Shown piece after piece: positions 891 through 33,434 of a stretch of 64,000 nucleotides of DNA (positions within the stretch are counted from its first letter, which is position 1; the number at the start of each line of letters is the position of its first letter). The DNA comes from an uncultured delta proteobacterium (GTDB lineage: Bacteria; Myxococcota_A; Polyangia; Polyangiales; Polyangiaceae), in NCBI GenBank assembly GCA_963827955.1, contig CAWHDJ010000018.1, positions 1,181,297-1,245,296 on the forward strand, read 5' to 3'. A model generated the notes under the pieces. The model was not told the origin of the DNA. It searched no databases and was given only the letters and a program-made list of their open reading frames with translations. Both the position numbers and the translations under genes were made by a program.

Positions 891-1258
891 GGCGCGGGCC
901 GACAAGCGCGCGTCACCATGGAGGCCGGCGCCTCGCCCTCGCACCGGCGCACCAGCGTCGCCGAGATCGCGCCCGCCTCCTCGCACGCCCGCGCGAGCAC
1001 GCCCTCCACCACCCTCGGTTGCCCTCGCGTGAGCTGGACCACCCAGCCTCGCTGCAGCGGCTCGTCGAGCGGGAACGGCCGCGGGGGGCCCGACGCCGTG
1101 TCGCGCACCGTGACGGCCGCTTCGCAGCGATCGAGGCGAGCGGCCGAGAACATCCGCCAGGCGAAGCGCTCGTCCGCGGGCGCCCGGAGGCCGAGATAGT
1201 AGCCGAGCGGCAGCGCCACCTGCGCGACGAGGTAGCACGCGATGAACGCGTCGGTCAC
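887..1258 (-). CDS. hypothetical protein with an FAWRMFS-type motif, translationally coupled to the HTTM protein
   Basis: A 123-aa ORF with non-biased composition (MTDAFIACYLVAQVALPLGYYLGLRAPADERFAWRMFSAARLD..). Its stop overlaps the downstream start. Confidence 0.3.
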   Translation of the reverse strand: MTDAFIACYLVAQVALPLGYYLGLRAPADERFAWRMFSAARLDRCEAAVTVRDTASGPPRPFPLDEPLQRGWVVQLTRGQPRVVEGVLARACEEAGAISATLVRRCEGEAPASMVTRACRPAP

Positions 1259-1363
1259 GAAGCGCCCGCGCTTCGGGCGCGGGGCGGATGAGGCGGCGGT
1301 GGCGATGGGACGCAGTATCGCAAGGACCTCACGGGAAGTCCTGCTCCGTTCACGCGCCGCCGG

Positions 1364-2215
1364 TCACTTGAAGTCCTGCGCGTACCAGCCCACGGTCGAG
1401 AAGCCGCACGCCACCGTGCTGAGCACGCTGCTCTTCATGTTCAGGTAGTGACCGCACTCCCCGTTGGACCCGCTGAATACGCAGTTCTTGCAGTTGTCGT
1501 ACGGGAAGTCGCAGGTGTCGCAGCCCGAGCAGATGGACTGATCCTTCTCCGCCCACATCAGCGCGAGGCAGGTGGTGATCCCGTCGGTCGCGTTGAGCGG
1601 GTTGACGGAGTAGCCCGGGCACTCGTCCTCCGCGTTGCTCCCGCACATCCCCTGGTTGATGAACGACCAGTGCGCGCTGTTCTTCATCTCGTCCGTGGTC
1701 GCCTCCTGGGCGACGCACGACTCTGCCGAGGTCCAGCGCGTGTACGCGGGCAGCCCGCGGGTCGCGCGGTACATGTTGATCGTGTTCAGGCAGACCTCCG
1801 CGGGGCTCGTCGCGCCGCTGCTGGTCGTGCTGCTGCTCGAGGACGAGCTCGCGCTGCCCCCGCTCGTGCTCGACGTGCTCGTGGCCGCGCTCGTGCTTGC
1901 AGCCGCGCTCGTGCTCGTGGTCGCGCTCGTGCTCGTGGTCGCGCTCGTGCTCGTGCTCCCGCTCGTGCCCGTGCTGGCGCCGGCCCCGGTGCTCACCGCG
2001 CCCGTGCCTTCGCCCGACGAAGCCGGCCCCACACCCGCCGTCGCTCCGCCCACGCCTTGCCCGGTGGCCCCGCCCGCGCCGCTCGCCCCGTGCTCTCCGC
2101 CGGCGCCGCTGCTCGAGTCGTCGACCACGAGATCGTCGACGCCCGTGAGCGCGTTGCAACCCGCGAGCACCGCGAGCATCAGCGAGGCGACGGAGAGTGG
2201 CCAGGCGAAGCGCAT
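1364..2215 (-). CDS. CAP/SCP/PR-1-like domain lipoprotein with a Ser/Thr/Gly-rich linker
   Basis: The start is the internal M of ORF 1364..3307 (MRFAWPLSVASLMLAVLAGC, lipobox LAGC; ATG 2213-2215). A long S/T/G linker follows. The C-terminal domain (NTINMYRATRGLPAYTRWTSAESCVAQEATTDEMKNSAHWSF...GHYLNM) matches the CAP/PR-1 fold. Confidence 0.6.
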   Translation of the reverse strand: MRFAWPLSVASLMLAVLAGCNALTGVDDLVVDDSSSGAGGEHGASGAGGATGQGVGGATAGVGPASSGEGTGAVSTGAGASTGTSGSTSTSATTSTSATTSTSAAASTSAATSTSSTSGGSASSSSSSSTTSSGATSPAEVCLNTINMYRATRGLPAYTRWTSAESCVAQEATTDEMKNSAHWSFINQGMCGSNAEDECPGYSVNPLNATDGITTCLALMWAEKDQSICSGCDTCDFPYDNCKNCVFSGSNGECGHYLNMKSSVLSTVACGFSTVGWYAQDFK

Positions 2216-2310
2216 GTGCGTGAGCCTACGGGGCAGACGCCATGCGTCAACGGCTACCGTTTTCGCGGGAATCGGCCATCTGGTGGAAAAGTGCAGCAGC
2301 CGCGTCGAGG

Positions 2311-3307
2311 CTACGATCGGTGCAGGTTCGCCACGATCCGCGCCCCGTCGACGTCGAAGCGGAAGCGGAGCTGGCGGAGGCCGCGCAGGGCCATGGCCTC
2401 GAGCACGCGGCGCCGGTCGGCCGGGCGCACGTAGAGCATGAAGAAGCCGCCGCCGCCCGCGCCCATCAGCTTGCCGCCGAGCGCGCCCGCGGCGCGCGCC
2501 GCCTCGTAGTGCTCGTCGAGCGTCGCGTCGGTCATCTTCGACGCCAGCTTGCGCTTGCGCTCCCAGTGGTGGTGGAGCAGCTCCCCGTAGCGATCGACGT
2601 CGCCCTGCACGAGCAGGCGGTAGACCTCGTGCCCGATCTCCTTGATGGCGTGCATCCGCTCGATCGCGTCGCCGTCCAGCTCGCGCAGCCGCTTGCCCTG
2701 CTCGGAGAGCACCACGCTCGCGGGCCGCTCCACGCCGGTCCAGACGATGAGCAGGTTGGTCTCGAGCTCGTCGAGCACCTCGTCCCGCACCGGGACGGGC
2801 TCCACCGCCACCGAGCCGTCGGTGCCGAAGGTGAACGCCGTCACGCTCCCGAACGCGGAGATGTACTGGTCCTGCTTGCCGATGGGCTCGCCGAGGCGGT
2901 CGATCTCGATGGAGCACGCCTCCTCCGCGAGCTGGCGCGAGCTGACGAACTCGCGCTTGTACGTGTGGAGGGCGTTGAGCAACGCCACTGTGAACGCGCT
3001 CGACGACCCGAGCCCGCTGTTCGCCGGCAGGTCGGCCACGCTCGTGAGCTCGATGGAGTGCTCGATCTGCGTCATCCGGAGCGCCTCGCGGAAGATGCGG
3101 TGCTCGATCTTGTCGACGCTGGGGACGATCTCCGTGTGCGAGTACGCGAGGCGGATGTCGCGGTGGAACCGCTTGTTGGCCGTGACGTAGATGTACTTGT
3201 CGATCGCGGCCGAGATCGAGGTAGCCGCCGAAGCGGTTGGAGTACGCGGGGAGGTCGGTGCCTCCACCGCCGAGGGAGAAACGGACGGGGGCGCGAGAGA
3301 CGATCAT
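2311..3307 (-). CDS. GHMP kinase (D-glycero-D-manno-heptose 7-phosphate kinase HddA-like), frameshifted near 3225
   Basis: The N-terminus in one frame (MIVSRAPVRFSLGGGGTDLPAYSNRFGGY) carries the GHMP P-x-R-[IF]-S-L-x-GGGTD motif. The remainder is in another frame (ORF 2311..3267: ISAAIDKYIYVT, PANSGLGSSSAF, MGAGGGGF). The single frameshift is either a sequencing indel or a pseudogene. Confidence 0.6.
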
Positions 3308-4035
3308 GGGCTCTTGTCTCCGTTAGCGTTGCGGAGCTCGGTCTCGAGGTCGGATAGTCCCTCGGGGGAGCCGATCTCGAAGAAGCGGCGGGTGGCCACG
3401 TGCGCGCGCAAACGGCCCCGGGCGGCGAGGTCGTGCTGCACGGCCGAGAGGTCGTGCGCCTCGCCGGGCGGGAGGGCGGCGACGACCTCGCGCCGGAGCG
3501 CGGTGGCGCCGTAGTCGATCGCGTCGAGCGACGGATCGGGCGGCGCGCCCTTCGGGCGCTTCTCGTAGCGGGCGACGAGCTCGCCCTCCACGCGGGTGTT
3601 GCTGCGATCGAAGCGATCGTCGTTCTTGAAGACCGCCATGGTGCCGAGCGCCTCCGGGTGCGCGCGGAGGTCGCGGAGCGGCGCCATGTAGTCGAAGGGC
3701 AGGTACGAGTCGCCGTACGTGACGAGGAACGTGGGCGCGAGGAGCGGCGAGGCCTTGCGAAGCGCGCCCGCGGTGCCGAGCAGGCGCTCGCCGTCCTCCA
3801 CGTAGGCGAGCGAGATCCCGAACGCGCTCCCGTCGCCGAGGCTCCGCCGCACCTCGTCGCCGAGGTGCCCGATGCAGAGCACGGCCTCCTCGAACCCCGC
3901 TGCGGCGAGCCGTTCGAGGAGCCACGCGGCGAAGGGGCGGCCGGCGACGGGCAGCAGGAGCTTGGGGATCCGCTCGGTGCGCGGGAGCATCCGCGTGCCG
4001 AGACCCCCTGCGAGGATGACGACTTGGTCAGCCAT
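3304..4035 (-). CDS. sugar-phosphate nucleotidyltransferase (HddC/mannose-1-P guanylyltransferase-like)
   Basis: It starts at the internal M (MADQVVILAGGLGTRMLP..) with the classic nucleotidyltransferase G-x-G-T-R motif, and LLGTAGAL, YGDS. ATGA overlaps the GHMP kinase start. Confidence 0.65.
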   Translation of the reverse strand: MADQVVILAGGLGTRMLPRTERIPKLLLPVAGRPFAAWLLERLAAAGFEEAVLCIGHLGDEVRRSLGDGSAFGISLAYVEDGERLLGTAGALRKASPLLAPTFLVTYGDSYLPFDYMAPLRDLRAHPEALGTMAVFKNDDRFDRSNTRVEGELVARYEKRPKGAPPDPSLDAIDYGATALRREVVAALPPGEAHDLSAVQHDLAARGRLRAHVATRRFFEIGSPEGLSDLETELRNANGDKSP

Positions 4036-4975
4036 TGGGCGGGAAGACTTCCGCCGCCAGCGCGGCCACCGCGCGCCCCACCGCCTCGTCGCTGGAGAAG
4101 CGGACGCGGAACCCGAGCGCCGCGAGCTTGGCCGGATCCATGCGCGAGCGCGGCACGTCGCCCGGCCATCCACGGTCGCCGCCGGTGTAGCGGATGACCG
4201 CGTCCTTGTACGGCGAATGCGCCACGCAGAGCTCGGCGATGCGCGCCACGCTGGTCGCGTCGAGGGGCGCGAGGTTGTGGATGTTGAGCCGCTCCTTCGC
4301 GTGGTCGAGGCCGAAGAGCATGCCCTGTACGCAGTCCGTGACGAAGAGGTAGGGCTTCGACTGCTTGCCGTCGCCGAGCACCTCGAGCTCCGTCTTCTTG
4401 TCGCGGAGCTTCCTGAGGAAATCGAGCGCCGCGCCGTGCGTGCCCCGCGGGCCGACGACGTTGCCGAAGCGGTAGATGTACGCCGTGAGGCCGAAGCACT
4501 CGACGAAGGCGGAGACCATCGCCTCGCCCGCGAACTTGCTCGCGCCGTAGAGCGAGATGGGGAGGCAGCCGAGGTCGCCCTCGGCGCACGTGGCCGGCGT
4601 CTCGCCGTACACCGTTCCCGACGACGAGAAGACGAGCTTCGGCACGCCGCCGAGGCGCATCGCCTCGAGCACGTTGTACGTCGCGATGGTGCCCTGCTCC
4701 AGGTCGAGCCGCGTACGCGCGAGGCCCCAGCGCGCCTCGGGGTTGGCGGCGAGGTGGAAGACGACGTCGTGCCCCGCCACGGCGGCGGTGAGGCGCTCGA
4801 GATCGAGCATGTCGGCCTCGATCAGCGTGGCGCGCCCGGACGCGAGGTGACCCTCGATCCACGCGCGCTTGCCGACCGAGAGGTTGTCGTAGACCGTGAC
4901 GGGCCCGCGCGGGGCGAGCGCGTCCACCATGTGGCTGCCGATGAAGCCGGCGCCCCCGACGACGAACGATTGCAT
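4028..4975 (-). CDS. NAD-dependent epimerase/dehydratase (extended SDR)
   Basis: It starts at the internal M (MQSFVVGGAGFIGSHMVDAL, Rossmann GxxGxxG) and has YGASK (the catalytic YxxxK). There is an 8-bp overlap with the downstream gene. Confidence 0.7.
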   Translation of the reverse strand: MQSFVVGGAGFIGSHMVDALAPRGPVTVYDNLSVGKRAWIEGHLASGRATLIEADMLDLERLTAAVAGHDVVFHLAANPEARWGLARTRLDLEQGTIATYNVLEAMRLGGVPKLVFSSSGTVYGETPATCAEGDLGCLPISLYGASKFAGEAMVSAFVECFGLTAYIYRFGNVVGPRGTHGAALDFLRKLRDKKTELEVLGDGKQSKPYLFVTDCVQGMLFGLDHAKERLNIHNLAPLDATSVARIAELCVAHSPYKDAVIRYTGGDRGWPGDVPRSRMDPAKLAALGFRVRFSSDEAVGRAVAALAAEVFPPNG

Positions 4976-5764: not shown

Positions 5765-6673
5765 TCAGTTCAGGCTCACGTCCGTGCTCTGCGACCCCCC
5801 GAACACCCCTCGCTCCTTCGCCTGGGCCAGCACCCGGAGCGCCGTCCTGTACCCCCGCAACACCAGCGGGCGGGCGGCGAAGCGGTTCAGGTAGCCGTAG
5901 TGGCCGATGTCGGGGGCGATGTCGAGGAAGGTGACGTGGGGGTAGAGCTTGGAGAGCAGCTCGACGCCGCGCCGCTCCTTCTCGGTGAGCAGGATGTTGA
6001 GGGCCTGGCGCACCACGGCGTGGGCGCCGCGGCGGGCGATGTTGGAGTCGGTGGGGAGGACGCTCCTCCGGGCGGTAGATGTTCGAGATGATTACGACCG
6101 TGGCGCCCGCGGCGACGGCGATGTCGGCCGAGAGGGTGCGCGCGACCTCCCCGTCGAGGAAGTAGCGGCCGCCGATGCGGTACGGCCGGAAGAGGCCGGG
6201 CACGCAGCAGCTCGCCGCCACGGCCTGGCTGATGGGCACGCGCTCCTCGTACCCCGGGCCGAAGACGACGCGCTGGCCGTTGTCGACGTCGACGGCCGTC
6301 ACGAAGATCCGGTTCGGGAGCGCGCGGAAGTCGTTGATGGGCAGGTAGCCTGCGAGGTACCGCTCGAGCTTGTCGAGCGAGAACATGCCCGAGAGCACGT
6401 AGCCGGGGTCGAGCAGGTCGCGCAGGCGCGGCGCGCCCATGAACTTGTTGAGGTGCAGGCGCGGGCCCTGGTGGCGGCGCCGCCAGGGCAGCCGGTAGCC
6501 GTCGAGGAGCACGTCGAGCGGGATGTTCTGCCCGTAGGTGGCGCTCACGATGGCCCCGGCGCTCGCCCCGACGAAGACCTCCGGCTCGATGCCCAGCTCC
6601 TCGCAGGCCTTCAGCACGCCGAGGTGGGAGAGGCCGCGGGCGGCACCGCCGGATCCGATGAAGGCAATCTTGG
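5765..6673 (-). CDS. patatin-like phospholipase, frameshifted near 6050
   Basis: MPRTKIAFIGSGGAARGLSHLG (oxyanion GGxR), VGASAGA (GxSxG nucleophile) and FLDGEVA (catalytic DG[AG]). The C-terminal 83 aa are in another frame (ORF 5765..6016, MVRQALNILLTEKE..). Confidence 0.65.
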
Positions 6674-6752
6674 TTCGGGGCATGCAAACGTAGTTTCGCC
6701 GACCCGTCGAGGAGGGGCAAGAACGCGGCCATGCGTGTGCTACAGGTGAGCG

Positions 6753-7313
6753 GTGCCCCACCTCCTTCGCGTCGTGTTCCCCGCCCTGACCCTCTCGCTC
6801 GCGGCCCTCGGCTGCCAGGCCAACCCGCAGGAGGGCATGATCCGCCCCGAGGCCTCCGTTCACGCTCCGGCGGCCCCTCCGGCTCGCCCGGCCGGCGGCA
6901 CCCACCCCGGCGCCACGGGGGAGTCGTGGAACGCCCAGCAGATCGACTGGCAGGGGTACGAGGCGGGCCTGGCGAAGGCGAAGGCGGAGAAGAAGCCCGT
7001 CGTCCTGGTGTTCTACACGAACTGGTGCCCCCACTGCCGGAACTACAGCCACGTCTTCGACGACCCGACGGTGGTCGCGCAGAGCAAGAAGTTCGTGATG
7101 GTCCGCGCCAACGCCGACGAGGAGGCGGATCTCGCCAACCGATACAGGCAGGATGGCGGCTACGTGCCCCGCACCTTCTTCCTGAAGCCGGACGGCACCC
7201 TCGACCCCGACATCCACGTCCCCCGGCCCAAGTTCCTCTACTTCTTCGACGAGAAGGACCCGCGCTCGCTGCTCGGGGGGATGGACGAGGCGCTGCGCAA
7301 GCTCGCGGGGTGA
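6753..7313 (+). CDS. thioredoxin-fold lipoprotein (WCPHC active site)
   Basis: GTG start. The signal/lipobox is LSLAALGC. VLVFYTNWCPHCRNY has the CxxC motif. The gene is divergent from the patatin gene. Confidence 0.7.
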   Translation: MPHLLRVVFPALTLSLAALGCQANPQEGMIRPEASVHAPAAPPARPAGGTHPGATGESWNAQQIDWQGYEAGLAKAKAEKKPVVLVFYTNWCPHCRNYSHVFDDPTVVAQSKKFVMVRANADEEADLANRYRQDGGYVPRTFFLKPDGTLDPDIHVPRPKFLYFFDEKDPRSLLGGMDEALRKLAG

Positions 7314-7374
7314 GCGGCGCGCAATCCGCGTGCCAAGAGACTCGTCGTTCGGGTCGAGCCGCTCGTCGTTCGAG

Positions 7375-7935
7375 CCGAGCGGATGGGCAAGCGTGCCGCG
7401 CGGATGGGTGAGCGTGCCGCGCGGATGGGCAAGCGTGCCGCGCGGATGGGCAAGCGAGCCGCGCGGATGGGAAAGCGTGCCGCGCGGATGGGCAAGCGAG
7501 CCGCGCGGATGGGCAAGCGAGCCGCGCGGATGGGCAAGCATGCCGCGCGGATGGGTAAAGCGAGCCGCGCGGATGGGCAAGCGTGCCGCGCGGATGGGCA
7601 AGCGAGCCGCGCGGATGGGCAAGCGTGCCGCGCGGATGGGCGGGTCGAGCCGCGCGGATGGGCAAGCGTGCCGCGCGGATGGGCGGGTGAGCCGTGCGGA
7701 TGGGCAAGCGTGCCGCGCGGATGGGCAAGCGAGCCGCGCGGATGGGCGGGTGAGCCGCGCGGAGGGGCAAGCGAGCCGTGCGGATGGGCAAGCGAGCCGC
7801 GCGGATGGGCGGGTGAGCCGCGCGGATGGGCAAGCGAGCCGCGCGGATGGGCAAGCGTGCCGCGCGGATGGGTGAGCGAGCCGCGCGGATGGGCAAGCGA
7901 GCCGCGCGGATGGGCAAGCGAGCCGCGCGGATGCG
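7375..7935. repeat. 21-bp tandem repeat array, about 27 copies (unit GCGCGGATGGGCAAGCG[A/T]GCC), intergenic
   Basis: It is directly visible in the sequence. Units are 20-22 bp with variants (gggtgagcg, gggcgggtgagcc), so no frame is conserved throughout. It lies between the thioredoxin stop and the next + strand gene. Confidence 0.85.
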
Positions 7936-7970
7936 ACCTCGCAGTTGTGATACACGAAGGCGTGGCGGGC

Positions 7971-8756
7971 GTGGTTGAGGGTGCGAGCAGCAGGTGGCTC
8001 CTCCTGGTTCGACGCGTCGCCGCCAGCGCGCTCGCCGCGGCCGCGTTCACGCTCCCGTCGGCGCGCGCCGAGGCGTACCGCCCCTTCGACGGCACCGACG
8101 CGGACACGGCGGAGCCCAGAGAATTCGAGCTCGAGCTCGGCCCCGTCAACTACTACCGCCAGGGGGATCAGATCTTCCTCATCACGCCCGGCATGGTCCT
8201 GAACTACGGCCTCGGCGCGAGGACCGAGCTGGTCTTCGACGCGAGTGTGTACGTGGGGGTCCACAAGCCGACCCCCGGGGCGCCGCGCGTGGCCCTGCGT
8301 GGGGACGACCTGCTCTTGAAGCACGTGTTCCGCGAAGGGATCCTTCAAGGGAAGACGGGCGTCAGCATCGCGGCGGAGGGAGGCGTGCTCACCCCCGAGA
8401 GCAGCGGGGGAGTCGTCGGCCTCGGCGCGTCGCTCGATGTCATCCTCTCGTACCAGTGGTCGTGGGGCACCATCCACTGGAACGAGTGGTTCCAGTACAC
8501 GCGCGACCACCACGCGGACCTCTACACCGGAGCCATCCTCGAAGGGCCTCACGACTGGAAGGTGCGACCCGTCGCCGAGCTCTACTACGAGAAGGATTTC
8601 GCGGCCGACCGAACCGGGTCCGTCCTCGTCGGCGCGATCTGGACCGTCAGCGAGTCGATCGCGATCGACGCCGGCTTTCGCGGCGCGCGGTCGGGCTCGG
8701 CGTACGTCACCGAGGCGAGGCTCGGGCTCACGTGGTCCATCCCGACCGAGGGCTGA
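7971..8756 (+). CDS. secreted protein, putative outer-membrane beta-barrel (MetA-pathway/phenol-degradation-like family?)
   Basis: The signal peptide (VRRVAASALAAAAFTLPSARA|EA) follows an in-frame GTG after the repeat array. Alternating hydrophobic beta-strand patterning is seen (LGLTWSI, VLVGAIWTV). The start is uncertain: GTG 7947, 7962 or 7971. Confidence 0.45.
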   Translation: MVEGASSRWLLLVRRVAASALAAAAFTLPSARAEAYRPFDGTDADTAEPREFELELGPVNYYRQGDQIFLITPGMVLNYGLGARTELVFDASVYVGVHKPTPGAPRVALRGDDLLLKHVFREGILQGKTGVSIAAEGGVLTPESSGGVVGLGASLDVILSYQWSWGTIHWNEWFQYTRDHHADLYTGAILEGPHDWKVRPVAELYYEKDFAADRTGSVLVGAIWTVSESIAIDAGFRGARSGSAYVTEARLGLTWSIPTEG

Positions 8757-8817
8757 GTCGAGGCCGCGCCAACCCACTGGCCCCCGCGCCCGTCTTCCGG
8801 TACTCCCTGATCGCTCC

Positions 8818-10216
8818 ATGAGCGACCCCGACGCGCCCTTCCAGCGTGAAGAGTCCCTCGACAAGCCGGGCATCGTCGGCGCCCGCTGGTGGCAGCGCAG
8901 CCTGGAGGCGCCGCCGGACATGATGTCGCGCCGGCAGGCGGTGCAGGGCATGCTCGTCGCCGGCGGGGTCGTGGCGGGGCTCGGCGTGATGCTCGCCGTC
9001 GCGGGCGCGGCGTCGCACGCGTCGAGCGCTTCGAGCGCTTCGAGCGACTACCGGACGGAGACGCGCCCCTCGCTGGAGGCGCAGAAGAGCTTCGGGTGGA
9101 GCTTCGGCGCGCCCGGCGAGGCGCTGACCTTCGACGGCCGGTCGAAGCAGCCCTTCGACCGCGACGCCCTCGGGCGGATGGTGGACGACCTCCGCCCCGC
9201 GCGCCGCGAGCACGCGCCCTGGTACGTGCCCACGCTCTTCCAGGCCATCGGCGCCCAGCCGCGTGAGCGCGCGGTCGAGGAGACGACGCCCACGGTCCCG
9301 CTCGCGCAGGTCCTCCAGCCCATCTCCACGGCGGCGATGGACCTGGCCTATCGCCGCGGCAAGGCGCTCGCCTCGTTGTTCCAGGGCAAGGACGCGGCCG
9401 TCATGGTCGTCGTCGACCTGCCGGGGCCCGAGGCCGTCGCCTTCGCGGCCGGCGCCGCGGCCGTCTTCGATCCCGTCTTCGCCTTCGACAACTGGCCCCA
9501 CCCGCGCGGCGTCGTCCCTGCGCACCAGACCCTCGCCGCGGCGGCGTACTACCAGCCCCTCTTCGCCAAGCGTAGCGCCCCCGCCGGCGCGCCCGCGCTC
9601 GTCGCCCTCGATCGCCGGAGGCTCGCCTCCTATGCCGACGACGCGACGCAGTTCGACAACCGCCACGTCGCCCGCGTGCCCGGCGCCGCTGCGCTGAAAG
9701 CGCTCGGGATCAAGCGGGTGCTCTACGTCGCGCCGAGCGGGACGGACCGGGAGCTCGACGATCTCAACGACGATCCGGTCGCCTACATGCTGGCCGGGAT
9801 TGAGGTGCGGCTGGTCGGCGCGGACGCCTTCGGCCCCGAATCCGAGCGACGCGGGCAACACCGACGCGCCCTTCTACTACGGATCGAGCGCCCACACCCA
9901 CCTCGGGTTCTGGCTCGCCTACCGCTGGATCGAGCCCCCCCACTCCGCCCATCCGAGCGCGCCGGTCACGATGGGGGGAGACCCCCCATACCCCCCGGCC
10001 CAGCCGGTCCCACCCATGGCGGGCGCCGCATACGCCTTCGCGCCGCGCGCCTCGCCGTTCTCCAGCGGCTCCCTCACGGGATCGGCGGAGAGGCCGAGGC
10101 CGCCGGGCTTTGCCACCGTGCCGGTGATCGTCTCGGTCGCCACCGGCCTCGTCCTCGGCGCCAAGCTGTTCCGGAGCGGGTCGTGGAACCGCGCGTCGGG
10201 CTACTCCGGAGGGTAG
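8818..10216 (+). CDS. hypothetical protein with a Tat-like signal (SRRQAVQGMLVAGGVVAGLGV), frameshifted near 9838
   Basis: It starts at the internal M of ORF 8437..10434 (MSDPDAPFQ..). The real-looking C-terminus (NPSDAGNTDAPFYYGSSAHTHLGFWLAYRWIEPP...TVPVIVSVATGLVLGAKLF) lies in the frame of ORF 9800..10216. Confidence 0.4.
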
Positions 10217-22003: not shown

Positions 22004-22320
22004 TCCGATCCCCACACACGCCTCGGCGATCCCCGCGTACGCCTCGGCGAACCCCACGTACGCCTCGGCGATCCACGCATACGCCTCGGCGATCCACGCA
22101 TACGCCTCGGCGATCCCCACATACGCTTCGGCGATCCCCACGTACGCCTTGGCGATCCACGCGTACGCCTCGGCGATCCCCACATACGCCTCGTCGATCC
22201 CCACGTACGCCTCGGCGAACCACGCGTACGCCTCGTCGATCCACACGTACGCCTCGTCGATCCCCACGTACGCCTCGGCGATCCACACGTACGCCTCGGC
22301 GATCCACGCCCGAGCTTGCG
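22003..22320. repeat. 21-bp tandem repeat array, about 15 copies (unit CGCCTCGGCGATCC[C/A]CRCGTA), in frame with the SUKH gene and encoding (EAYVGIA)n heptads on the - strand
   Basis: Direct reading. It is a different unit from the 7375-7935 array but the same 21-bp period. Confidence 0.85.
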
Positions 22321-22373: not shown

Positions 22374-22436
22374 GCCCTGTCTCCGTTTGGGCCATGCCTG
22401 TCTCCGTTTGGGCCCTGCCTGTCTCCGTTTGGGCCC
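22374..22436. repeat. 3 x 21-bp tandem repeat (CTGTCTCCGTTTGGGCCMTGC)
   Basis: Direct reading. It lies 200-260 bp upstream of the 22634 gene. Confidence 0.8.
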
Positions 22437-22633
22437 TGCGACCCCTGGGCTGCGCCTCGACCAGGCGCTCGGGCCCCCTCAGGATCCTTCCCAACCTTGC
22501 GAAACCACGATTTATTTTGGACCCACAGGCCACGGCGCGTCCGGCTCGCGGCGGGCAGGCACGGCGCTTGCGATGAGGGCTCGTCGACGCGGCAATCGGG
22601 CCGCGGATCACCCATCACAGAAAGGAGGGCCCC

Positions 22634-28072: not shown

Positions 28073-28354
28073 ATGGCGGAGGAGCGAAGGGCCCGCACCA
28101 AGCACGCAAGCCACGTGAGCGTCCGCCTCGACGCGGCGACGATGATCCGCGTGGAGGCCGTGGCCCCGCTCTTCTCGACGGAGTGGCGCACCGCCTCCCG
28201 CTCGGACGTGCTGCGCGGGCTGATCCTCGACGCGCTGGATCGGTTCGAGCAAGGCGCCCGGCCCGAGGGGTGGCGGGGTGCCGCGCCGGAGAAGGCGGGG
28301 GCGAAGCCTGCGGCGGGGAAGAAGGGGAAGCGAGGGGCGAAGCCGAAGCGGTAG
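28073..28354 (+). CDS. ribbon-helix-helix (CopG/Arc-like) DNA-binding protein with Lys-rich tail
   Basis: MAEERRARTKHASHVSVRLDAATMIRVEAV...SRSDVLRGLILDALDRFE follows the beta-strand, helix, helix pattern of RHH proteins. It converges on the low-GC island. Confidence 0.4.
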   Translation: MAEERRARTKHASHVSVRLDAATMIRVEAVAPLFSTEWRTASRSDVLRGLILDALDRFEQGARPEGWRGAAPEKAGAKPAAGKKGKRGAKPKR

Positions 28355-28356
28355 GC

Positions 28357-28941
28357 TCAGACGCAGAGCGTCGATAGCCAGTAATCCGCTCCGTCGCTGA
28401 GGTGGGCGACCTGGAGCGGGAGGCGCCCCTTCGTCGTCGCATAGGCCATCCTTCCGGGCCTCGGGCCGGACTTGGACACCGCGTGGTGACTGAAGACGAT
28501 CCCGCGGTACTCGACGCGAGGTTTTCCAAGGTCCGCGTGATGACCCACCATTGCGAGGAAGTAATCGGCGAGGAGCCTCGCGTTCTCGAGCTGGTCGATG
28601 GCGCCCTCCAGTTTCCCCGATTTGAGCTCGCACAGGAGCACGTAGAGCACGGGGTCATCCTCCCCCTGCTCGCAGAATATCCAGTAATCGCACATGCGCG
28701 CGACGCCTTCGATCTCGCGGAATAGCGGGAACAGCCGGTCCTTGACGCAGATCGGCTGACCCCTCGGGCCGAAGGAGATCTTCGCGTTGAAGGAGACCAC
28801 CACGCACTTGCCCGATTGGTGGATCCTCACGGGCTTGCACGTGCTGCCTTCGTCCTCCTCGCGCAGCTCGTTGTCCGTCACCACGAGGCCATGGCGGAGC
28901 ACCTCGTCGACGGCCTGGAGCCAGCGGGAGCCCTTACCCAT
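28357..28941 (-). CDS. hypothetical protein, partner of the AAA_21 ATPase (possible effector; acidic cluster CEQGEDD)
   Basis: It is 194 aa and its start overlaps the ATPase stop by 8 bp. GC is about 62%, against about 72% in the flanks. No HNH motif is seen. Confidence 0.45.
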   Translation of the reverse strand: MGKGSRWLQAVDEVLRHGLVVTDNELREEDEGSTCKPVRIHQSGKCVVVSFNAKISFGPRGQPICVKDRLFPLFREIEGVARMCDYWIFCEQGEDDPVLYVLLCELKSGKLEGAIDQLENARLLADYFLAMVGHHADLGKPRVEYRGIVFSHHAVSKSGPRPGRMAYATTKGRLPLQVAHLSDGADYWLSTLCV

Positions 28942-30280
28942 TGAGGGCCACGTAGATCTGCTGGGACACCGCGTTCAACTTGTTGATCTCCTCCTCGATG
29001 GTACGCGCCTCGAACCCTTCCTCGGTCACGGGCACGTTCTCGGCCGTGCCGCCCTGGAACAGGTACACGCCGAGCTTGGACGGGCTCAGCAGCTCGGCGT
29101 CGGCGTAGCCGAGCTCGGCGCGCAGATCCTTGATGGGCTGCGTGTCGCGAGAGAGGAGGACGAGGTTGTTCAGCTCGCGCAGGATGTAGTCGCTGTGCGT
29201 GCTCATGATCATGCGCAGGCCCCGGTTCACCGCCTTGGCGAGCACGCGAGCCACCTTCCGCTGATTATCCGGGTGGAGGTTCAGCTCGGGCTCGTCGATC
29301 ATGAGGAGGTCGCCCTTCCTGGCGATGTGGCGGAGAAAGAAGACGAGCCGCACGAGCGATTTGACGATGGAGGAGGAGAGGTGGATGCCGAGCGTCGCTG
29401 GCGCACCTTCCGGCTTGAATCCAACCTCGCCTTCTTTGGACAAATAGACGGCGCCGCCGAGGAGCGTCTCGAGCTCGACGGCCAGATCGGCGAACTCACC
29501 CTTCCCTTTTGCGAGGCGAACGAGATCATTCGCCATGCGAAGACTATCCTGTATCGGCCACGGATAGCGTCCGACATCGCGTGTGAGCGACATGGGCTCC
29601 GGTTGTGCATCGATTTTCGCCTCGACGATCCTGTCCACGAGCTCCATGCGGCGGGTAGAAAGCTCTTTCGCGAACATATCCACATCGACGCGCTCCGTGG
29701 GCAGGATCGCGCAATATGGCCAGCATGTCTTCATCACGATCGTGCCCAGTTCATCTCCAATTCCATCGGCCAGCACGTCCATCAGAGCGGACGGGATCTG
29801 AGTGAAAGGAACAGATTTGGGGGAATCGCGGTGAAAGGCATACGCAACCAGTGCGCGCCCTTGGATGTAAATGCGGACCTGATATTCTCCAGAATACGCA
29901 TATCCGATCGGGCTCACCATGCCCCAGCTTGGCTCGTTCGCTCCAGCGCGCAGCACGACTCGGACGTCTGCAAAATACTGCCGCTCGGCGGCGAAACACA
30001 GGTGTAGGCGGCTCGCGAGCTGGTCGGCCGCCTCTGCGAGGATGCGGGGCCACAGTGCGGCGATGCGCTCGATGGGGATCGCTTGCTGCGGCGACGCCAG
30101 CATCTCGCCCGCGAGCTCGTGGAATACCTTGGGCGCGCTGGGCGACCGGAAGAGCCCGTATACGCTCCACGCCACGTACGTCTTCCCCGTGCCGTTCGGC
30201 CCGGTCAGCAGGATCATCTCCTTCGAGAGATCGACCTCCGCCTCGCGCAGCGGGCCCAGGTTTTCGACGCGGAAGAACAT
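28934..30280 (-). CDS. AAA_21/AAA_15 ABC-type ATPase (OLD/AbiL/PARIS/Septu-like ATPase component)
   Basis: It starts at MFFRVENLGPL. It has Walker A LTGPNGTGKTY, Walker B LLMIDEPELNLHP and H-loop IMSTHSDY, and is low-GC relative to the surroundings. Confidence 0.65.
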   Translation of the reverse strand: MFFRVENLGPLREAEVDLSKEMILLTGPNGTGKTYVAWSVYGLFRSPSAPKVFHELAGEMLASPQQAIPIERIAALWPRILAEAADQLASRLHLCFAAERQYFADVRVVLRAGANEPSWGMVSPIGYAYSGEYQVRIYIQGRALVAYAFHRDSPKSVPFTQIPSALMDVLADGIGDELGTIVMKTCWPYCAILPTERVDVDMFAKELSTRRMELVDRIVEAKIDAQPEPMSLTRDVGRYPWPIQDSLRMANDLVRLAKGKGEFADLAVELETLLGGAVYLSKEGEVGFKPEGAPATLGIHLSSSIVKSLVRLVFFLRHIARKGDLLMIDEPELNLHPDNQRKVARVLAKAVNRGLRMIMSTHSDYILRELNNLVLLSRDTQPIKDLRAELGYADAELLSPSKLGVYLFQGGTAENVPVTEEGFEARTIEEEINKLNAVSQQIYVALNG

Positions 30281-30397
30281 CGCCCGGGCACCATACCCGC
30301 GGCGCCCCAGGCCCGGCAAGCCGCCGGCCGACCAGCCCCGACGCAGACGCCCGTCCCGGGCGCCGCGCCGTCATGCGAGCGCGTTTGCGTGACGGTC

Positions 30398-30460
30398 GGC
30401 GTCTCTCGCGATGGCGCGAGCGCCTCTCGCGATGACGCGAGCACCTCCCGCGATGGCGCG
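30398..30460. promoter_or_regulatory. 3 x 21-bp tandem palindromic repeats (CTCTCGCGATGGCGCGAGCGC; core TCGCG-N4-CGCGA) in the divergent ATPase/MVP intergenic region
   Basis: Direct reading. Each unit contains a perfect 5-4-5 inverted repeat, which is operator-like. It sits 120-180 bp upstream of the ATPase start and about 110 bp upstream of the MVP start. Confidence 0.45.
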
Positions 30461-30566
30461 AGCGCTTCTCGGGTAACGCGCTCGCGCTGACGCGTTGCGT
30501 TGCCAGGCCCATCCGACGAGCACGCGCGTCCCGCTCCTGGTGCCCATTCCGGTGTAGCCTTCCCCC

Positions 30567-33434
30567 GTGACAGAGCGCACGAGCCGCAAGATCCCCGTCA
30601 CCGAACGCCAGTTCCTCTGGGTCCAGGACGACGACAAGGGCGAGGTCACCCTCCACGTCGGCCCCACGATGGTCTCGCCCACCGCGGCGGACCGCGTTGT
30701 CGTCGACGACGGTGAGGGCGGGTTCCGGGAGGACCTCTCGGGCCGGCCCCAGCAGATGGTGGAGCTCAGCGACAGCCAGTACGCGGTGCTCTTCAACCCG
30801 CTGGGGGAGAACGACGGGGGCCCGAACGGGAAGTTCCGCGCCGGCCGCAACGAGTCGCGCCCGGTGCGCAACGGCACGCGGGCGATGATCCCCGGCCCGT
30901 GCAGCTTCTACCTGCGCCCCGGGCAGCGGATCGACGTGCGCGACGCGCACGAGCTGGCGTCGAACCAGTACCTCGTCGTCAAGGTGTACGGCGAGGTCGA
31001 CACCACCGCGCCCTTCTTCCAGGTCACGGCGCGATCCGCCACCATCACCCGCGCCACGGCCGAGAGCCCCATCGCCCCCGGCAGCACCTCGCCCGACGGC
31101 GACGCGCGCGACGTCGTGCTCAAGCGCGGCCAGCTCATCGTCATCCGCGGCCTCGACACCCAGTTCTACATCCCGCCGACCGGCGTCGACATCGTGCCCG
31201 ACACCTCCGTCGACGACTCCGGCGCGGGCCTCAACGCCGCCGCCGCCCAGCGCCTCCTCGCCGCCCTCGCGCCCCCGCCTCCGCCTCCGCAGGCCGATCC
31301 GGCGGCCGTGGGCGGCGCCTTCGGCGCGCCCGCGATGAAGGCCGAGGCCGCCTACGACGAAGAGCGCGCCGAGGAGCCCGAGCAGCAGCAGACCCGCGCC
31401 CCGCGCCGCGCCGCCCCCGTCGTCGACCAGACCGCGCGCTCCCGCCAGCGCGTCATGCCTGCCGCCGCCGCAGCGCCCCCCGGCTTCGGTCCTCCTTCAC
31501 CTCCGCCGGCGCCGGCGCCCCAGCCGTTCCCGCCCCCGCAGACGCTCTCCGAGCTGGGATTGCTCGCCGCCGTGCGCCGCGCCCTGGAGCGCGAGGCCCG
31601 CCAGGCCCGCCTCGTGCGCCAGGCCGTCGTGCTCGGCGAGAAGGAGTACTGCGTCATCGTCGACGCCGACGGCAAGCGCGAGATCAAGGTCGGCCCGGCC
31701 CGCGTCTTCCCCGGCCCCTACGACGTCTTCATGGTCGAGGGCTCGAAGAACCGCGTCTACGACGCGTACGAGCTGCTCCCCCAGCGCGCCCTCTGGCTCC
31801 GCGTCATCGCCCCCATCTCGCGCGACGACCTCGCCGCCCGCCTCCCGCGCGGCTTCGCCCTCGACAAGGACCAGTACTACCCCGGCGACGAGCTGCTCCT
31901 CACGGGCGTCTCCACCTTCTTCGTCCCGTTCAACGAGATCGAGGTCCTCTCCCCGCAGACGGGCGAGGCCGTCGTCGGCAACGATCACCGCACCGTCTTC
32001 ATCGAGGCCATCGGCATCGACCAGAAGAGCGGCATCTACGTCCGCGATCTGGCCACCGGGGAGGTGCGGCTCGTCCGCGGCAAGCAGAGCTACCTCGTCG
32101 ATCCGCGCAAGGAGGTGCAGATCACCCGCACCGTCTCCGCGACGGACTGGAACCTGTGGATTGCCGGCAACGAGCCGCACAAGCGCACGGGCGCGCCCAT
32201 CACGACGCCGTGGGCCCTCTCCATCGTCGTGCCCCACAACATGGCCGCCCTCGCGACGTCGGCCGACGGCCAGCGCGTCATCCTCGGCCCGTGCGTGACC
32301 TTGCTCGGGTACGAGGAGACGCTGACCTCCATCCTGCTCTCGACGGGCACCCCCAAGTCGGATCAGGACCCGCTCCGCACCTCTTTCCTCCGCGTCGGCG
32401 GCAACCGGATCAGCGACGCGATCACCGTCGAGACGCTCGACTTCGTCGCCATCAGCGCCAAGGTCTCGCTCTCCGTCACCTTCCTCCAGGAGCAGAAGGA
32501 TCGCTGGTTTTACCACGAGAACTACGTGCAGGTCCTCGTCGACCACCTCCGGTCCATCGTCCGGAGCCGCTGCCGGACGCTGCCGCTGTCCACGCTCTGG
32601 CCGCAGATCCCCGCCGTCGTGCGCGACACGATCCTCGGCGAGAAGAGCGCGGCCGGCGGGCGCCCGGGGCGCGCGTTCCCGGAGAACGGGATGGTCGTGA
32701 CGGAGGTGGAGGTGCTCTCCGCCAACATCGTTGACAAGTCGATCGCCGCGCAGATGCAGCGGGTGCAGTCGGAGTTCGTGACGCTCCAGATCGGAGACCG
32801 CCAGGCGCAGGAGGCCCTCGCCTCCGCGCGCCTCCGCGCCGACATCAAGCGCCAGCACCAGGAGCTGGAGCAGGAGGCGCGGGAGCGGGAGGCGAGGCTC
32901 GAGGAGCAAGCGCGGCGGACGGCGCACGAGGTGAGCGTGGCGCGGGTGAAGGACGAGGAGTCGCTGCGGCGCGAGCAGCAGGCGCTCGGCGACGCGCGCG
33001 AGGCGGCGGCGCTCGCGGCGCGGCTCGGGCGGCAGGCGGACGAGCGCGACGCCGAGCGGGCCAACCTGGAGAAGTCGGCGGCCGCGCAGGCGGCGGCGAG
33101 GCGCGTGGTGGACGCGGCCGACGTGGAGAACCGGCGGGCGCTGCGCGATCTGGAGGTGCTGCTGATCCAGGCAGAGAGCGCGGCGACGGTGGCCGAGCGG
33201 CAGGCCGTGCAGGCGGGGCTCGTCGAGGCGCTCACGGCGCTCGGCGACAAGGCGCTGCTCGGCGAGGTCGCGCAGAACATGAACCTCGTCACCCTCTTCA
33301 AGGGCAAGGACGTGGGCACCATCCTCGCCGAGGTGCTCGGCGGCACGCCGGCGATGCCCGCCGTGCAGGCCCTGCGCGCGAAGTTCGCCTCGGCGCTCAC
33401 GACCGGCAGCACCCAGCCCGACGACGCCGGCTGA
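30567..33434 (+). CDS. major vault protein (MVP) homologue
   Basis: The 955-aa ORF is intact. From my recollection of the human MVP sequence, it shares blocks in the N-terminal repeats, the shoulder region and a coiled-coil cap-helix region at the C-terminus, for example: HVGPTMV / [31 protein letters not shown] / [46 protein letters not shown] / [30 protein letters not shown]...[27 protein letters not shown] / RVPHNAAV...[41 protein letters not shown] / VFPQNGLVVSSVDV. GC and codon usage look native. Confidence 0.8.
   Translation: [955 protein letters not shown]

Follow-up and report, generated by a model that had tools for sequence, protein, structure and literature searches.

A divergent PD-T4-4-type gene pair for an ATPase and a predicted nuclease, probably an intact anti-phage module, on a horizontally acquired cassette in a Polyangiaceae-type genome

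Results

The gene pair and its family

The locus described here lies in a 64-kb stretch of DNA from an uncultured member of the Polyangiaceae (contig CAWHDJ010000018.1; "the window" below means this whole stretch) and consists of two adjoining minus-strand genes, one for an ABC-type ATPase of 448 amino acids and one for a small partner of 194, which we place in the PD-T4-4 family of anti-phage systems (Table 1). The initial annotation, made from the sequence letters, had described two overlapping open reading frames (ORFs) of these lengths and in this order, and this description stands: the stop of the ATPase gene and the start of the partner gene have 8 bp in common (ATGGGTAA). A longer form of the ATPase ORF, started at TTG, would reach position 30319; the ATG at 30280 is favoured because an equivalent of M1 begins all 33 aligned homologues.

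The ATPase is matched by the Pfam families AAA_15 (5e-21) and AAA_21 (2.7e-12), both above their gathering cut-offs, and the Walker A, Walker B and H-loop motifs that had been read from it earlier are genuine and invariant in the 33 homologues. The invariant positions comprise G27-P28..G32-K33-T34 in Walker A, P194..R197 at the Q-loop position (with an arginine there as at R182 of WonA, from the WonAB system compared below), S304/K307/S308 in the signature, D329-E330-P-E-x-N-L-H-P-D across Walker B and the D-loop, and S360-T361-H362-S-D in the H-loop. More than 3,000 homologues were found, many from Sorangium, Polyangium and other Polyangiaceae; the phage family phrog_13167 also matches the protein (2.7e-49), and tblastn recovered plasmid-borne relatives, the enterobacterial plasmid copies being about 22-25% identical to it. 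NCBIfam returned only sub-threshold local matches, to transporter nucleotide-binding domains and defence ATPases, the best of them FtsE with 32.5 bits vs a cut-off of 264.85; SMC_N reached 21.4 bits vs a cut-off of 40, and AAA_23 was likewise weak and local. Similar solved structures (UvrA, FtsE and an OLD-family nuclease; E 2e-6 to 3e-4) align over the Walker B region only. A housekeeping family for the ATPase, an outcome that the initial annotation had named as fatal to its proposal, was looked for and did not appear, the NCBIfam matches lying far under their cut-offs.

The partner had been described as a protein with no recognisable domain, which holds for Pfam and NCBIfam, where it has no match, and fails for PADLOC: the PD-T4-4_B model PDLC04037 matches residues 24-160 (E 1.6e-12, 45.6 bits) and a further PD-T4-4_B model, PDLC04035, gives 3.5e-5. 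The next family in PADLOC is PDC-M47B, at only 0.0034 and 15.2 bits, and models for AriB, PtuB, RloB/AbiLii, Toprim, HNH and GajB return nothing at E<=1; the earlier remark that no HNH motif is present agrees with this blank in Pfam and PADLOC. Among 1.84 billion representatives searched with the profile, 825 belong to the family at E<=1e-3, and E28, P72, F74, D85, E105-L106-K107, Q117, N120, H135, R146-G147 and C193 are invariant in 20 close homologues. In an AlphaFold2 model (pLDDT 86, pTM 0.85), D85 opens strand 86-92 and E105-x-K107 closes the next strand, 98-107; then come a long helix (114-135) and another strand, the order of a restriction-endonuclease core. Searching the PDB by structure (Foldseek, with this model) or by sequence (with the partner profile) gave no significant match, and a tblastn search of plasmids with the partner gave none. 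The conserved residues and the model point to a predicted divergent PD-(D/E)xK nuclease with a putative D..ExK site, as in its family. The suggestion that the effector may be novel has to be given up, since the partner carries the invariant D..ExK motif of the PD-T4-4 family.

At the level of sequence, the PADLOC profile library was decisive for the identity of the pair. The profile searches that had been proposed for both proteins were run, and PADLOC names them PD-T4-4_A and PD-T4-4_B. The PD-T4-4_A model PDLC04033 covers residues 1-446 of the ATPase with positions 1-458 of its 460 (E 4.7e-88, 294.4 bits), so that this ABC/AAA_15 ATPase fits the profile of component A over its full length; the fit of the partner to component B is moderate, the PDLC04037 match marking a divergent subclade; and A stands upstream of B, adjoining it on one strand, as the gene order of the family has it. 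PD-T4-4 itself was found by functional selection for phage resistance in E. coli, in an element resembling an integrative and conjugative element (ICE) (Vassallo 2022, PMC9519451). A second point of reference came from tblastn, in the form of the E. coli Col plasmid NZ_CP051743.1 (L020, 4802 bp), which carries at 1352-3350 the genes for an ATPase that PD-T4-4_A matches at 3e-123 and for a 198-aa protein that PD-T4-4_B matches at 1e-43. By hhalign, the profile of the partner family aligns with the B protein of this plasmid at a probability of 90% (E 1.6e-6); CDYWIF is set against CDLVIV, CELKSG against LDLKSK and QLEN against QIEN, and a D..(E/D)xK..Q.EN motif is common to the partner family and the plasmid PD-T4-4_B. 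The system is already described: the pair is a divergent myxobacterial member of PD-T4-4 and adds no new system type or effector. As a candidate new system, which is how it had first been put forward, it does not last, both proteins matching PADLOC models of the E. coli-validated PD-T4-4.

Composition sets the pair apart from its surroundings. It has a guanine-plus-cytosine (GC) content of 62.9% vs 71.6% for the remainder of the window (71.3% for the whole), and the lowest-GC segment of 1924 bp in the 64 kb starts at 28351 (mean of all such segments 0.713, standard deviation 0.023). Among 41 candidate genes, the ATPase and partner genes rank lowest in GC (z -2.7 and -3.2), and their GC at third codon positions is 0.86 and 0.81 (mean 0.915). 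The depression had been given as 60% in a background of 72%: the dip is there and is significant, the value is about 63%, and only local 300-bp segments drop to 57%. Codons that end in A or T make up 17.9% in the pair vs 5.9% in 29 background genes, about a threefold difference, with AAA, TAT and GAT strongly over-represented (p 2e-9 to 2e-5). Atypical codon usage had also been noted, correctly, although the codons then named are weak examples (GTA and ATT 2x each, not significant; GCA p=0.02). The analysis of GC and codon usage, which had been recommended for this region, puts the GC minimum of the window at the pair, together with the threefold excess of A/T-ending codons.

Table 1. Features of the locus, in coordinates of the window
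Feature	Position	Strand	Remarks
ATPase ORF, 448 aa from ATG	28934..30280	-	PD-T4-4_A-type, OLD-like ABC, AAA_15/AAA_21
Walker A K33 codon	30184-30182	-	ATPase
Walker B D329-E330 codons	29296-29291	-	ATPase
H-loop H362 codon	29197-29195	-	ATPase
Small partner ORF, 194 aa	28357..28941	-	PD-T4-4_B-type, predicted divergent PD-(D/E)xK nuclease
Putative catalytic D85 codon	28689-28687	-	Partner
Putative catalytic E105 codon	28629-28627	-	Partner
Putative catalytic K107 codon	28623-28621	-	Partner
Inferred inserted segment, ~2.2 kb	28355..30545	.	Gene pair and ~240-260 bp of upstream non-coding DNA
Flanking host gene, 93-aa ribbon-helix-helix (RHH)-like protein	28073..28354	+	Outside the module; strand VSVRLD, helices 21-34 and 43-59
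Flanking host gene, 955-aa major-vault-protein (MVP)-like protein	30567..33434	+	Outside the module; right side of the insertion site
Tandem array, 21-bp units, 3.5 copies	30399..30471	.	TRF score 111, 84% matches

Insertion site and flanking genes

The two plus-strand genes on either side of the pair are found next to each other elsewhere. In three related loci (L017-L019, of which L018 and L019 are near-identical), an orthologue of the small 93-aa gene stands 36-50 bp upstream of an MVP-like gene, on the same strand and without the pair. The 93-aa protein of the window shares 59-70% identity with the small proteins of these loci, and the MVP-like proteins of L017 and L018 are 78-83% identical to its counterpart here. 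In the window, 2.2 kb parts the small gene from the MVP-like gene, made up of the opposite-strand pair and about 250 bp. Homology to the empty sites restarts on the MVP side at about 30525-30551, and the right boundary of the inserted segment can be placed to within about 25 bp in either direction; at the opposite end, the 93-aa protein is conserved through its C-terminal residue, and the stop codons of its gene and of the convergent partner gene stand 2 bp apart. The adjacency of the small gene and the MVP-like gene in L017-L019 shows that the pair was inserted and that the RHH-like gene is part of the host genome; from the sequence comparison, the RHH-like and MVP-like genes look like a conserved two-gene unit that the cassette has split here. 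In the empty loci, which are Polyangiaceae contigs, this unit lies at 1031-4204 (L017) and 6048-9201 (L018), with RHH-like products of about 80-90 aa and MVP-like products of 955/957 aa. Pfam recognises the 955-aa protein of the window by MVP_shoulder (1.4e-16), Vault_3 (1.5e-5) and Vault_4 (3e-4).

The 93-aa protein has no Pfam, NCBIfam or PDB sequence match. Twelve homologues of its gene were found, the pattern VSVRLD..RV.A..P.FS..W..A.RSD.LRGLI..AL is invariant in thirteen homologous proteins, and an AlphaFold2 monomer has two helices with a core pLDDT of about 90; the top Foldseek matches (TTHA0139, RHH domains of ParD, and TCP domains) are weak, at E 0.04-3. Its pattern and model make an RHH nature plausible. 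The initial annotation had an RHH gene converging on the island, of which the small convergent plus-strand gene is real, the RHH label lacks profile support and membership of the island falls away. As a third module component, a convergent small gene was considered and rejected: the convergent 95-aa gene beside the pair in another locus, L001, is non-homologous, and the one in the window belongs with the MVP-like gene.

Other adjacent genes are housekeeping-like (MscS, SDR, LPG-synthase TM, AurF-like and S49 peptidase). The best candidate for a terminal inverted repeat, 28 nt at 28409-28436 and 30514-30541 with 79% complementarity, is scored as well by 1.9% of equally spaced random segment pairs from the window; it is doubtful because its left arm sits within the partner coding sequence, and as the ends of a mobile element it is marginal.

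Related loci

Thirteen related loci retain ATPase sequence (L001-L014, not counting L002 duplicates; genomic and metagenomic, from Polyangium and Polyangiaceae metagenome-assembled genomes (MAGs), with partner identities of 38-62%), and in each of them the ATPase gene directly precedes the partner gene on one strand. The gap between the two genes is about 15 bp or less in L001-L013, and the same order is kept on the L020 plasmid. The flanking genes vary from locus to locus, and the homologous pair is lower in GC than both flanks in 8/8 related loci measured; low GC therefore goes with the cassette wherever it is located.

Decay is visible elsewhere in the family. One homologous PD-T4-4-like locus is represented three times, by L005 (6650-8004), L006 (879-2233) and L007 (644-1998), from contigs of ENA, NCBI (GCA_005776825.1) and Logan. 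Gene calling breaks its ATPase into ORFs of 184 and 233 aa, and tblastn gives overlapping segments in different frames; the neighbouring partner gene is intact, and this ATPase is probably a frameshifted, decaying copy. A Pseudomonadota MAG (L015, JBBCIN010000001.1) holds at 8001-8316 only a partner-like C-terminal half (residues 92-194) without an upstream ATPase, an apparent module remnant outside the Polyangiaceae. On Col-type plasmids, namely L020 and Klebsiella plasmids of ~4.26 kb, a PD-T4-4 pair is the near-sole cargo besides replication, and these tiny plasmids show the mobility of the two-gene cassette.

The tandem array

The 21-bp array lies within the inserted segment, in the divergent intergenic region, at distances of 119-191 bp from the ATPase ATG and 96-168 bp from the MVP-like GTG, upstream of both. 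Each unit holds a 6+4+6 palindrome, CTCGCG-N4-CGCGAG, with one mismatch in the third copy, and inverted matches of its direct-repeat family D1 occur at 30469-30494. It had been described as three perfect TCGCG-N4-CGCGA units: the tandem 21-bp array is there, and the palindrome is perfect in two of the three units, the third reading CCGCG-N4-CGCGA. Chance alone would give the 14-mer pattern TCGCG-N4-CGCGA about 1.5 times in the window.

The proposal that the units are operator sites finds no support. The array is absent upstream of all related ATPases; its palindrome has no other copy in the window and none in 19 related loci, its tandem pattern has no exact match among metagenome contigs, and the intergenic region around it has no similarity to related loci. 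A conserved operator lacks support on these grounds, the array being missing next to every related module. A structured RNA or known RNA family was also considered and found unsupported: Rfam gave no match, and folding was only marginally above shuffled sequence (z -2.2 and -1.4). A scan for promoters and terminators, which used a sigma-70-like consensus and is uninformative for myxobacterial promoters, gave no promoter-like site, and the sole terminator-like site lies inside the ATPase gene, within chance expectation.

The array is one of many with this period. The most frequent tandem-repeat period is 21 bp, both in the window (four arrays, at 7371-7933, 22006-22305, 22376-22439 and 30399-30471) and in related Polyangiaceae loci, where it is found in 11 of 35 arrays and period 42 in another three; the unit sequences are unrelated, and several of these arrays stand at or just upstream of gene 5' ends. 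Because period 21 is frequent in the lineage, the array looks like a member of a lineage-wide repeat class and not like an operator specific to the module. Examples with period 21 or 42 include L001 12821-13575 and 8851-9268, L016 12251-12363 and 12808-12978, L010 222-276 and L015 12890-12959. The 26.7-copy array at 7371-7933 in the window is read through by one ORF in all three frames (MGKRAAR, ADGQASR, EPRGWAS) and is therefore probably non-coding. A literature search for 21-bp tandem repeats in Sorangium found nothing. Arrays also occur near other pairs, with unrelated periods and sequences: L009 1583-1842 (85 bp x3, ~100 bp upstream of the ATPase), L014 841-1112 (88 bp x3.1, directly downstream of the partner) and L001 8851-9268 (42 bp x10, downstream). 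Such proximity is roughly at chance level, because arrays come about once per 7-8 kb. As far as the sequence evidence goes, the 21-bp array and the RHH-like gene appear to lie outside the functional module.

Discussion

Taken together, we consider it very probable that the pair is an intact anti-phage module of the PD-T4-4 family, acquired horizontally as a cassette of about 2.2 kb and set between the RHH-like and MVP-like genes of a Polyangiaceae-type genome. In its general form this is what the initial annotation had proposed, namely a horizontally acquired, defence-type module of an ATPase and a small partner, and the PADLOC matches, the GC dip and the empty sites all bear it out; the findings that it had listed as damaging to that proposal did not materialise, in that no housekeeping family emerged, the partner falls in the matching defence family and the GC dip is significant.

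Several observations weigh against this reading and define where it is weakest. The match of the partner to PD-T4-4_B is moderate (45.6 bits, residues 24-160), and PDLC04033 gives PDC-M47-type ATPases high scores too, so that placement in the subfamily hangs on the B protein. In the window, no tRNA gene, mobility gene or clear target-site duplication marks the insertion, and nine neighbouring proteins have no PADLOC match, which leaves the pair without a defence-island context; with no tRNA gene and no such match, the site is neither a defence island nor an integration hotspot. The effector of PD-T4-4 is a PD-(D/E)xK nuclease according to three sources and an HNH nuclease according to one 2026 preprint, whose label stands against our assignment, although the partner sequence shows nothing HNH-like. 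Finally, a defence role for this locus and its myxobacterial homologues would have to be drawn from their relatives.

Of the other ways to read the pair, a selfish addiction module of the toxin-antitoxin kind, in which the ATPase would restrain a nuclease toxin, loss would kill the cell and defence would be incidental or absent, has some attractions and strikes us as unlikely. Pfam describes AAA_21 as a "putative AbiEii toxin, Type IV TA system" domain, the 8-bp gene overlap suggests coupled stoichiometry, the cassette is solitary and mobile and turns up in unrelated contexts, its relatives are the bulk of the cargo on Col plasmids of 4.2-4.8 kb, and WonB is toxic when overproduced (PMC12137116). 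On the other hand, the WonAB nuclease is toxic only with an active ATPase, which excludes simple sequestration, and it was selection for phage resistance that yielded PD-T4-4 (PMC9519451); addiction and defence roles are, moreover, not mutually exclusive. We regard it as highly unlikely that the cassette is a decaying, non-functional passive remnant lying 2 bp from a convergent host gene without a terminator of its own. The close spacing of the partner and RHH-like stops, the lack of a sigma-70-like promoter or terminator in the scan, and the decay seen in the family (the split ATPase of L005-L007 and the partner fragment of L015) would fit such a remnant, yet both ORFs are full length and retain all invariant catalytic residues and the conserved 8-bp overlap, and a consensus promoter scan says little for myxobacterial promoters.

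An ABC ATPase and nuclease of housekeeping or DNA repair (RecF-, SbcCD- or OLD-like), with a low GC that arose by chance, is extremely improbable. In its favour one can cite the weak local matches to SMC_N and AAA_23 and the similarity to UvrA, FtsE and OLD-family structures, which is confined to the Walker B region. Against these stand NCBIfam matches that are all far under their cut-offs, an SMC_N score under its gathering threshold, the lack of the pair at orthologous loci, a patchy distribution in varied contexts, and full-length matches to defence-system models. Housekeeping ABC and SMC proteins tried as candidates (RecF, RecN, SbcC, SMC and transporter nucleotide-binding domains) gave no score over a curated cut-off.

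The sequence shows the family membership, the intact motifs, the operon structure and the horizontal acquisition of the pair; its trigger, target and outcome may be inferred by analogy from WonAB, from the E. coli system (EcPD-T4-4) and from the wider class of ABC-ATPase and nuclease systems. The ATPase would dimerise around ATP and form a complex with the small PD-(D/E)xK nuclease; on sensing a cue from the phage it would, by binding or hydrolysing ATP, license the nuclease; and the licensed nuclease would cut nucleic acid, more probably RNA (tRNA or rRNA, for instance) than bulk DNA, and so end the infection, with the infected cell lost (abortive infection). In WonAB, mutation of Walker A, the Q-loop arginine, Walker B, the H-loop or the nuclease lysine abolishes defence, the toxicity of the nuclease needs a present and active ATPase, and translation comes to a halt, with the chromosome left intact and the infection aborted (PMC12137116). 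EcPD-T4-4 forms a higher-order complex and cut 0/11 DNA substrates in vitro (bioRxiv 10.1101/2025.07.10.664194). There is also a slim chance that the Polyangiaceae copies form a distinct PD-T4-4 subclade whose divergent effector acts on another substrate (perhaps one particular tRNA or rRNA instead of DNA), that the 21-bp array is a real cis-regulatory element of the lineage-wide class at gene 5' ends, or both; the insertion may also have uncoupled a conserved RHH-like/MVP-like operon and thereby altered how a bacterial vault-like protein is expressed.

The locus adds a high-GC myxobacterial clade to the PD-T4-4 family. The comparison of filled and empty sites is unusually clean, with two genes moving as a minimal cassette that has no recognisable mobility gene. 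Furthermore, the invariant residues offer targets for mutagenesis, namely K33, R197, E330 and H362 in the ATPase and E28, D85, E105, K107, Q117 and N120 in the nuclease.

Comparison with known systems

The initial annotation had likened the architecture to AbiL, PARIS, Septu and Gabija, which is apt for an ATPase with a small partner and does not extend to the partner, which can be assigned to none of the four. These systems also join an OLD-type ABC ATPase sensor to a nuclease effector, and the ATPase of the window shares with theirs the C-terminal Walker B/H-loop region (AriA 2e-22, PtuA 9e-13, GajA 8e-12, AbiLi 9.3e-10). However, these ATPase matches are local (~70-120 residues), and the effector here is of the predicted PD-(D/E)xK type and not Toprim or HNH. 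PARIS was rejected as an identity because the AriA model covers residues 297-367 only and the partner has no AriB match at E<=1; Septu because the partner has no PtuB or HNH match and the NCBIfam PtuA model gives 31.8 bits vs a cut-off of 500; Gabija and OLD because the GajA and Old models cover only ~307-383, the 448-aa ATPase has no Toprim domain and the neighbour is no helicase; and AbiL because the AbiLi match is weak (9.3e-10) and the partner has no AbiLii or RloB match.

The PADLOC candidate system PDC-M47 is closer, being a sister family of the same architecture: PDC-M47A matches the ATPase at 8e-72 (240.6 bits), and the partner in a PDC-M47 pair from a cyanobacterial plasmid carries D..ExK as well. 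Neither component of our pair scores best on the PDC-M47 profiles, for which reason this candidate was set aside: PDC-M47A gives 240.6 vs 294.4 bits for PD-T4-4_A and PDC-M47B 15.2 vs 45.6 bits for PD-T4-4_B, and hhalign of the partner profile against a PDC-M47B protein reaches a probability of 19%. Krishnan et al. 2020 described 'OLD-ABC ATPase + novel REase' operons, which, like WonAB, join an ABC ATPase that has Walker A, an arginine at the Q-loop position, a Walker B glutamate and an H-loop histidine to a small variant PD-(D/E)xK nuclease.

For mechanism, the best model by analogy is WonAB from the WASA-1 prophage of Vibrio cholerae, which consists of an ABC ATPase and a small variant PD-(D/E)xK nuclease and which we compared by its published description. 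K34, R182, E300 and H333 of WonA correspond to K33, R197, E330 and H362 of the ATPase here. The literature places WonAB as a relative of PD-T4-4, with differences between the systems in ATPase inserts and C-terminal extensions (PMC12137116).

The system closest to the pair is PD-T4-4 of E. coli ECOR58, for which phage resistance has been established in the E. coli system only (PMC9519451). Divergence between the two is large (ATPase ~22-25% identical to enterobacterial plasmid copies, partner at 45.6 bits), and the setting differs, the pair in the window being a solitary chromosomal insertion in a high-GC myxobacterial host, with no ICE or defence hotspot. The likeness lies in the plan of the system: in both, a ~450-aa AAA_15/ABC ATPase comes first and a ~190-aa partner second on one strand, both proteins fit the hidden Markov models of the family, and both systems reside on mobile or variable DNA.

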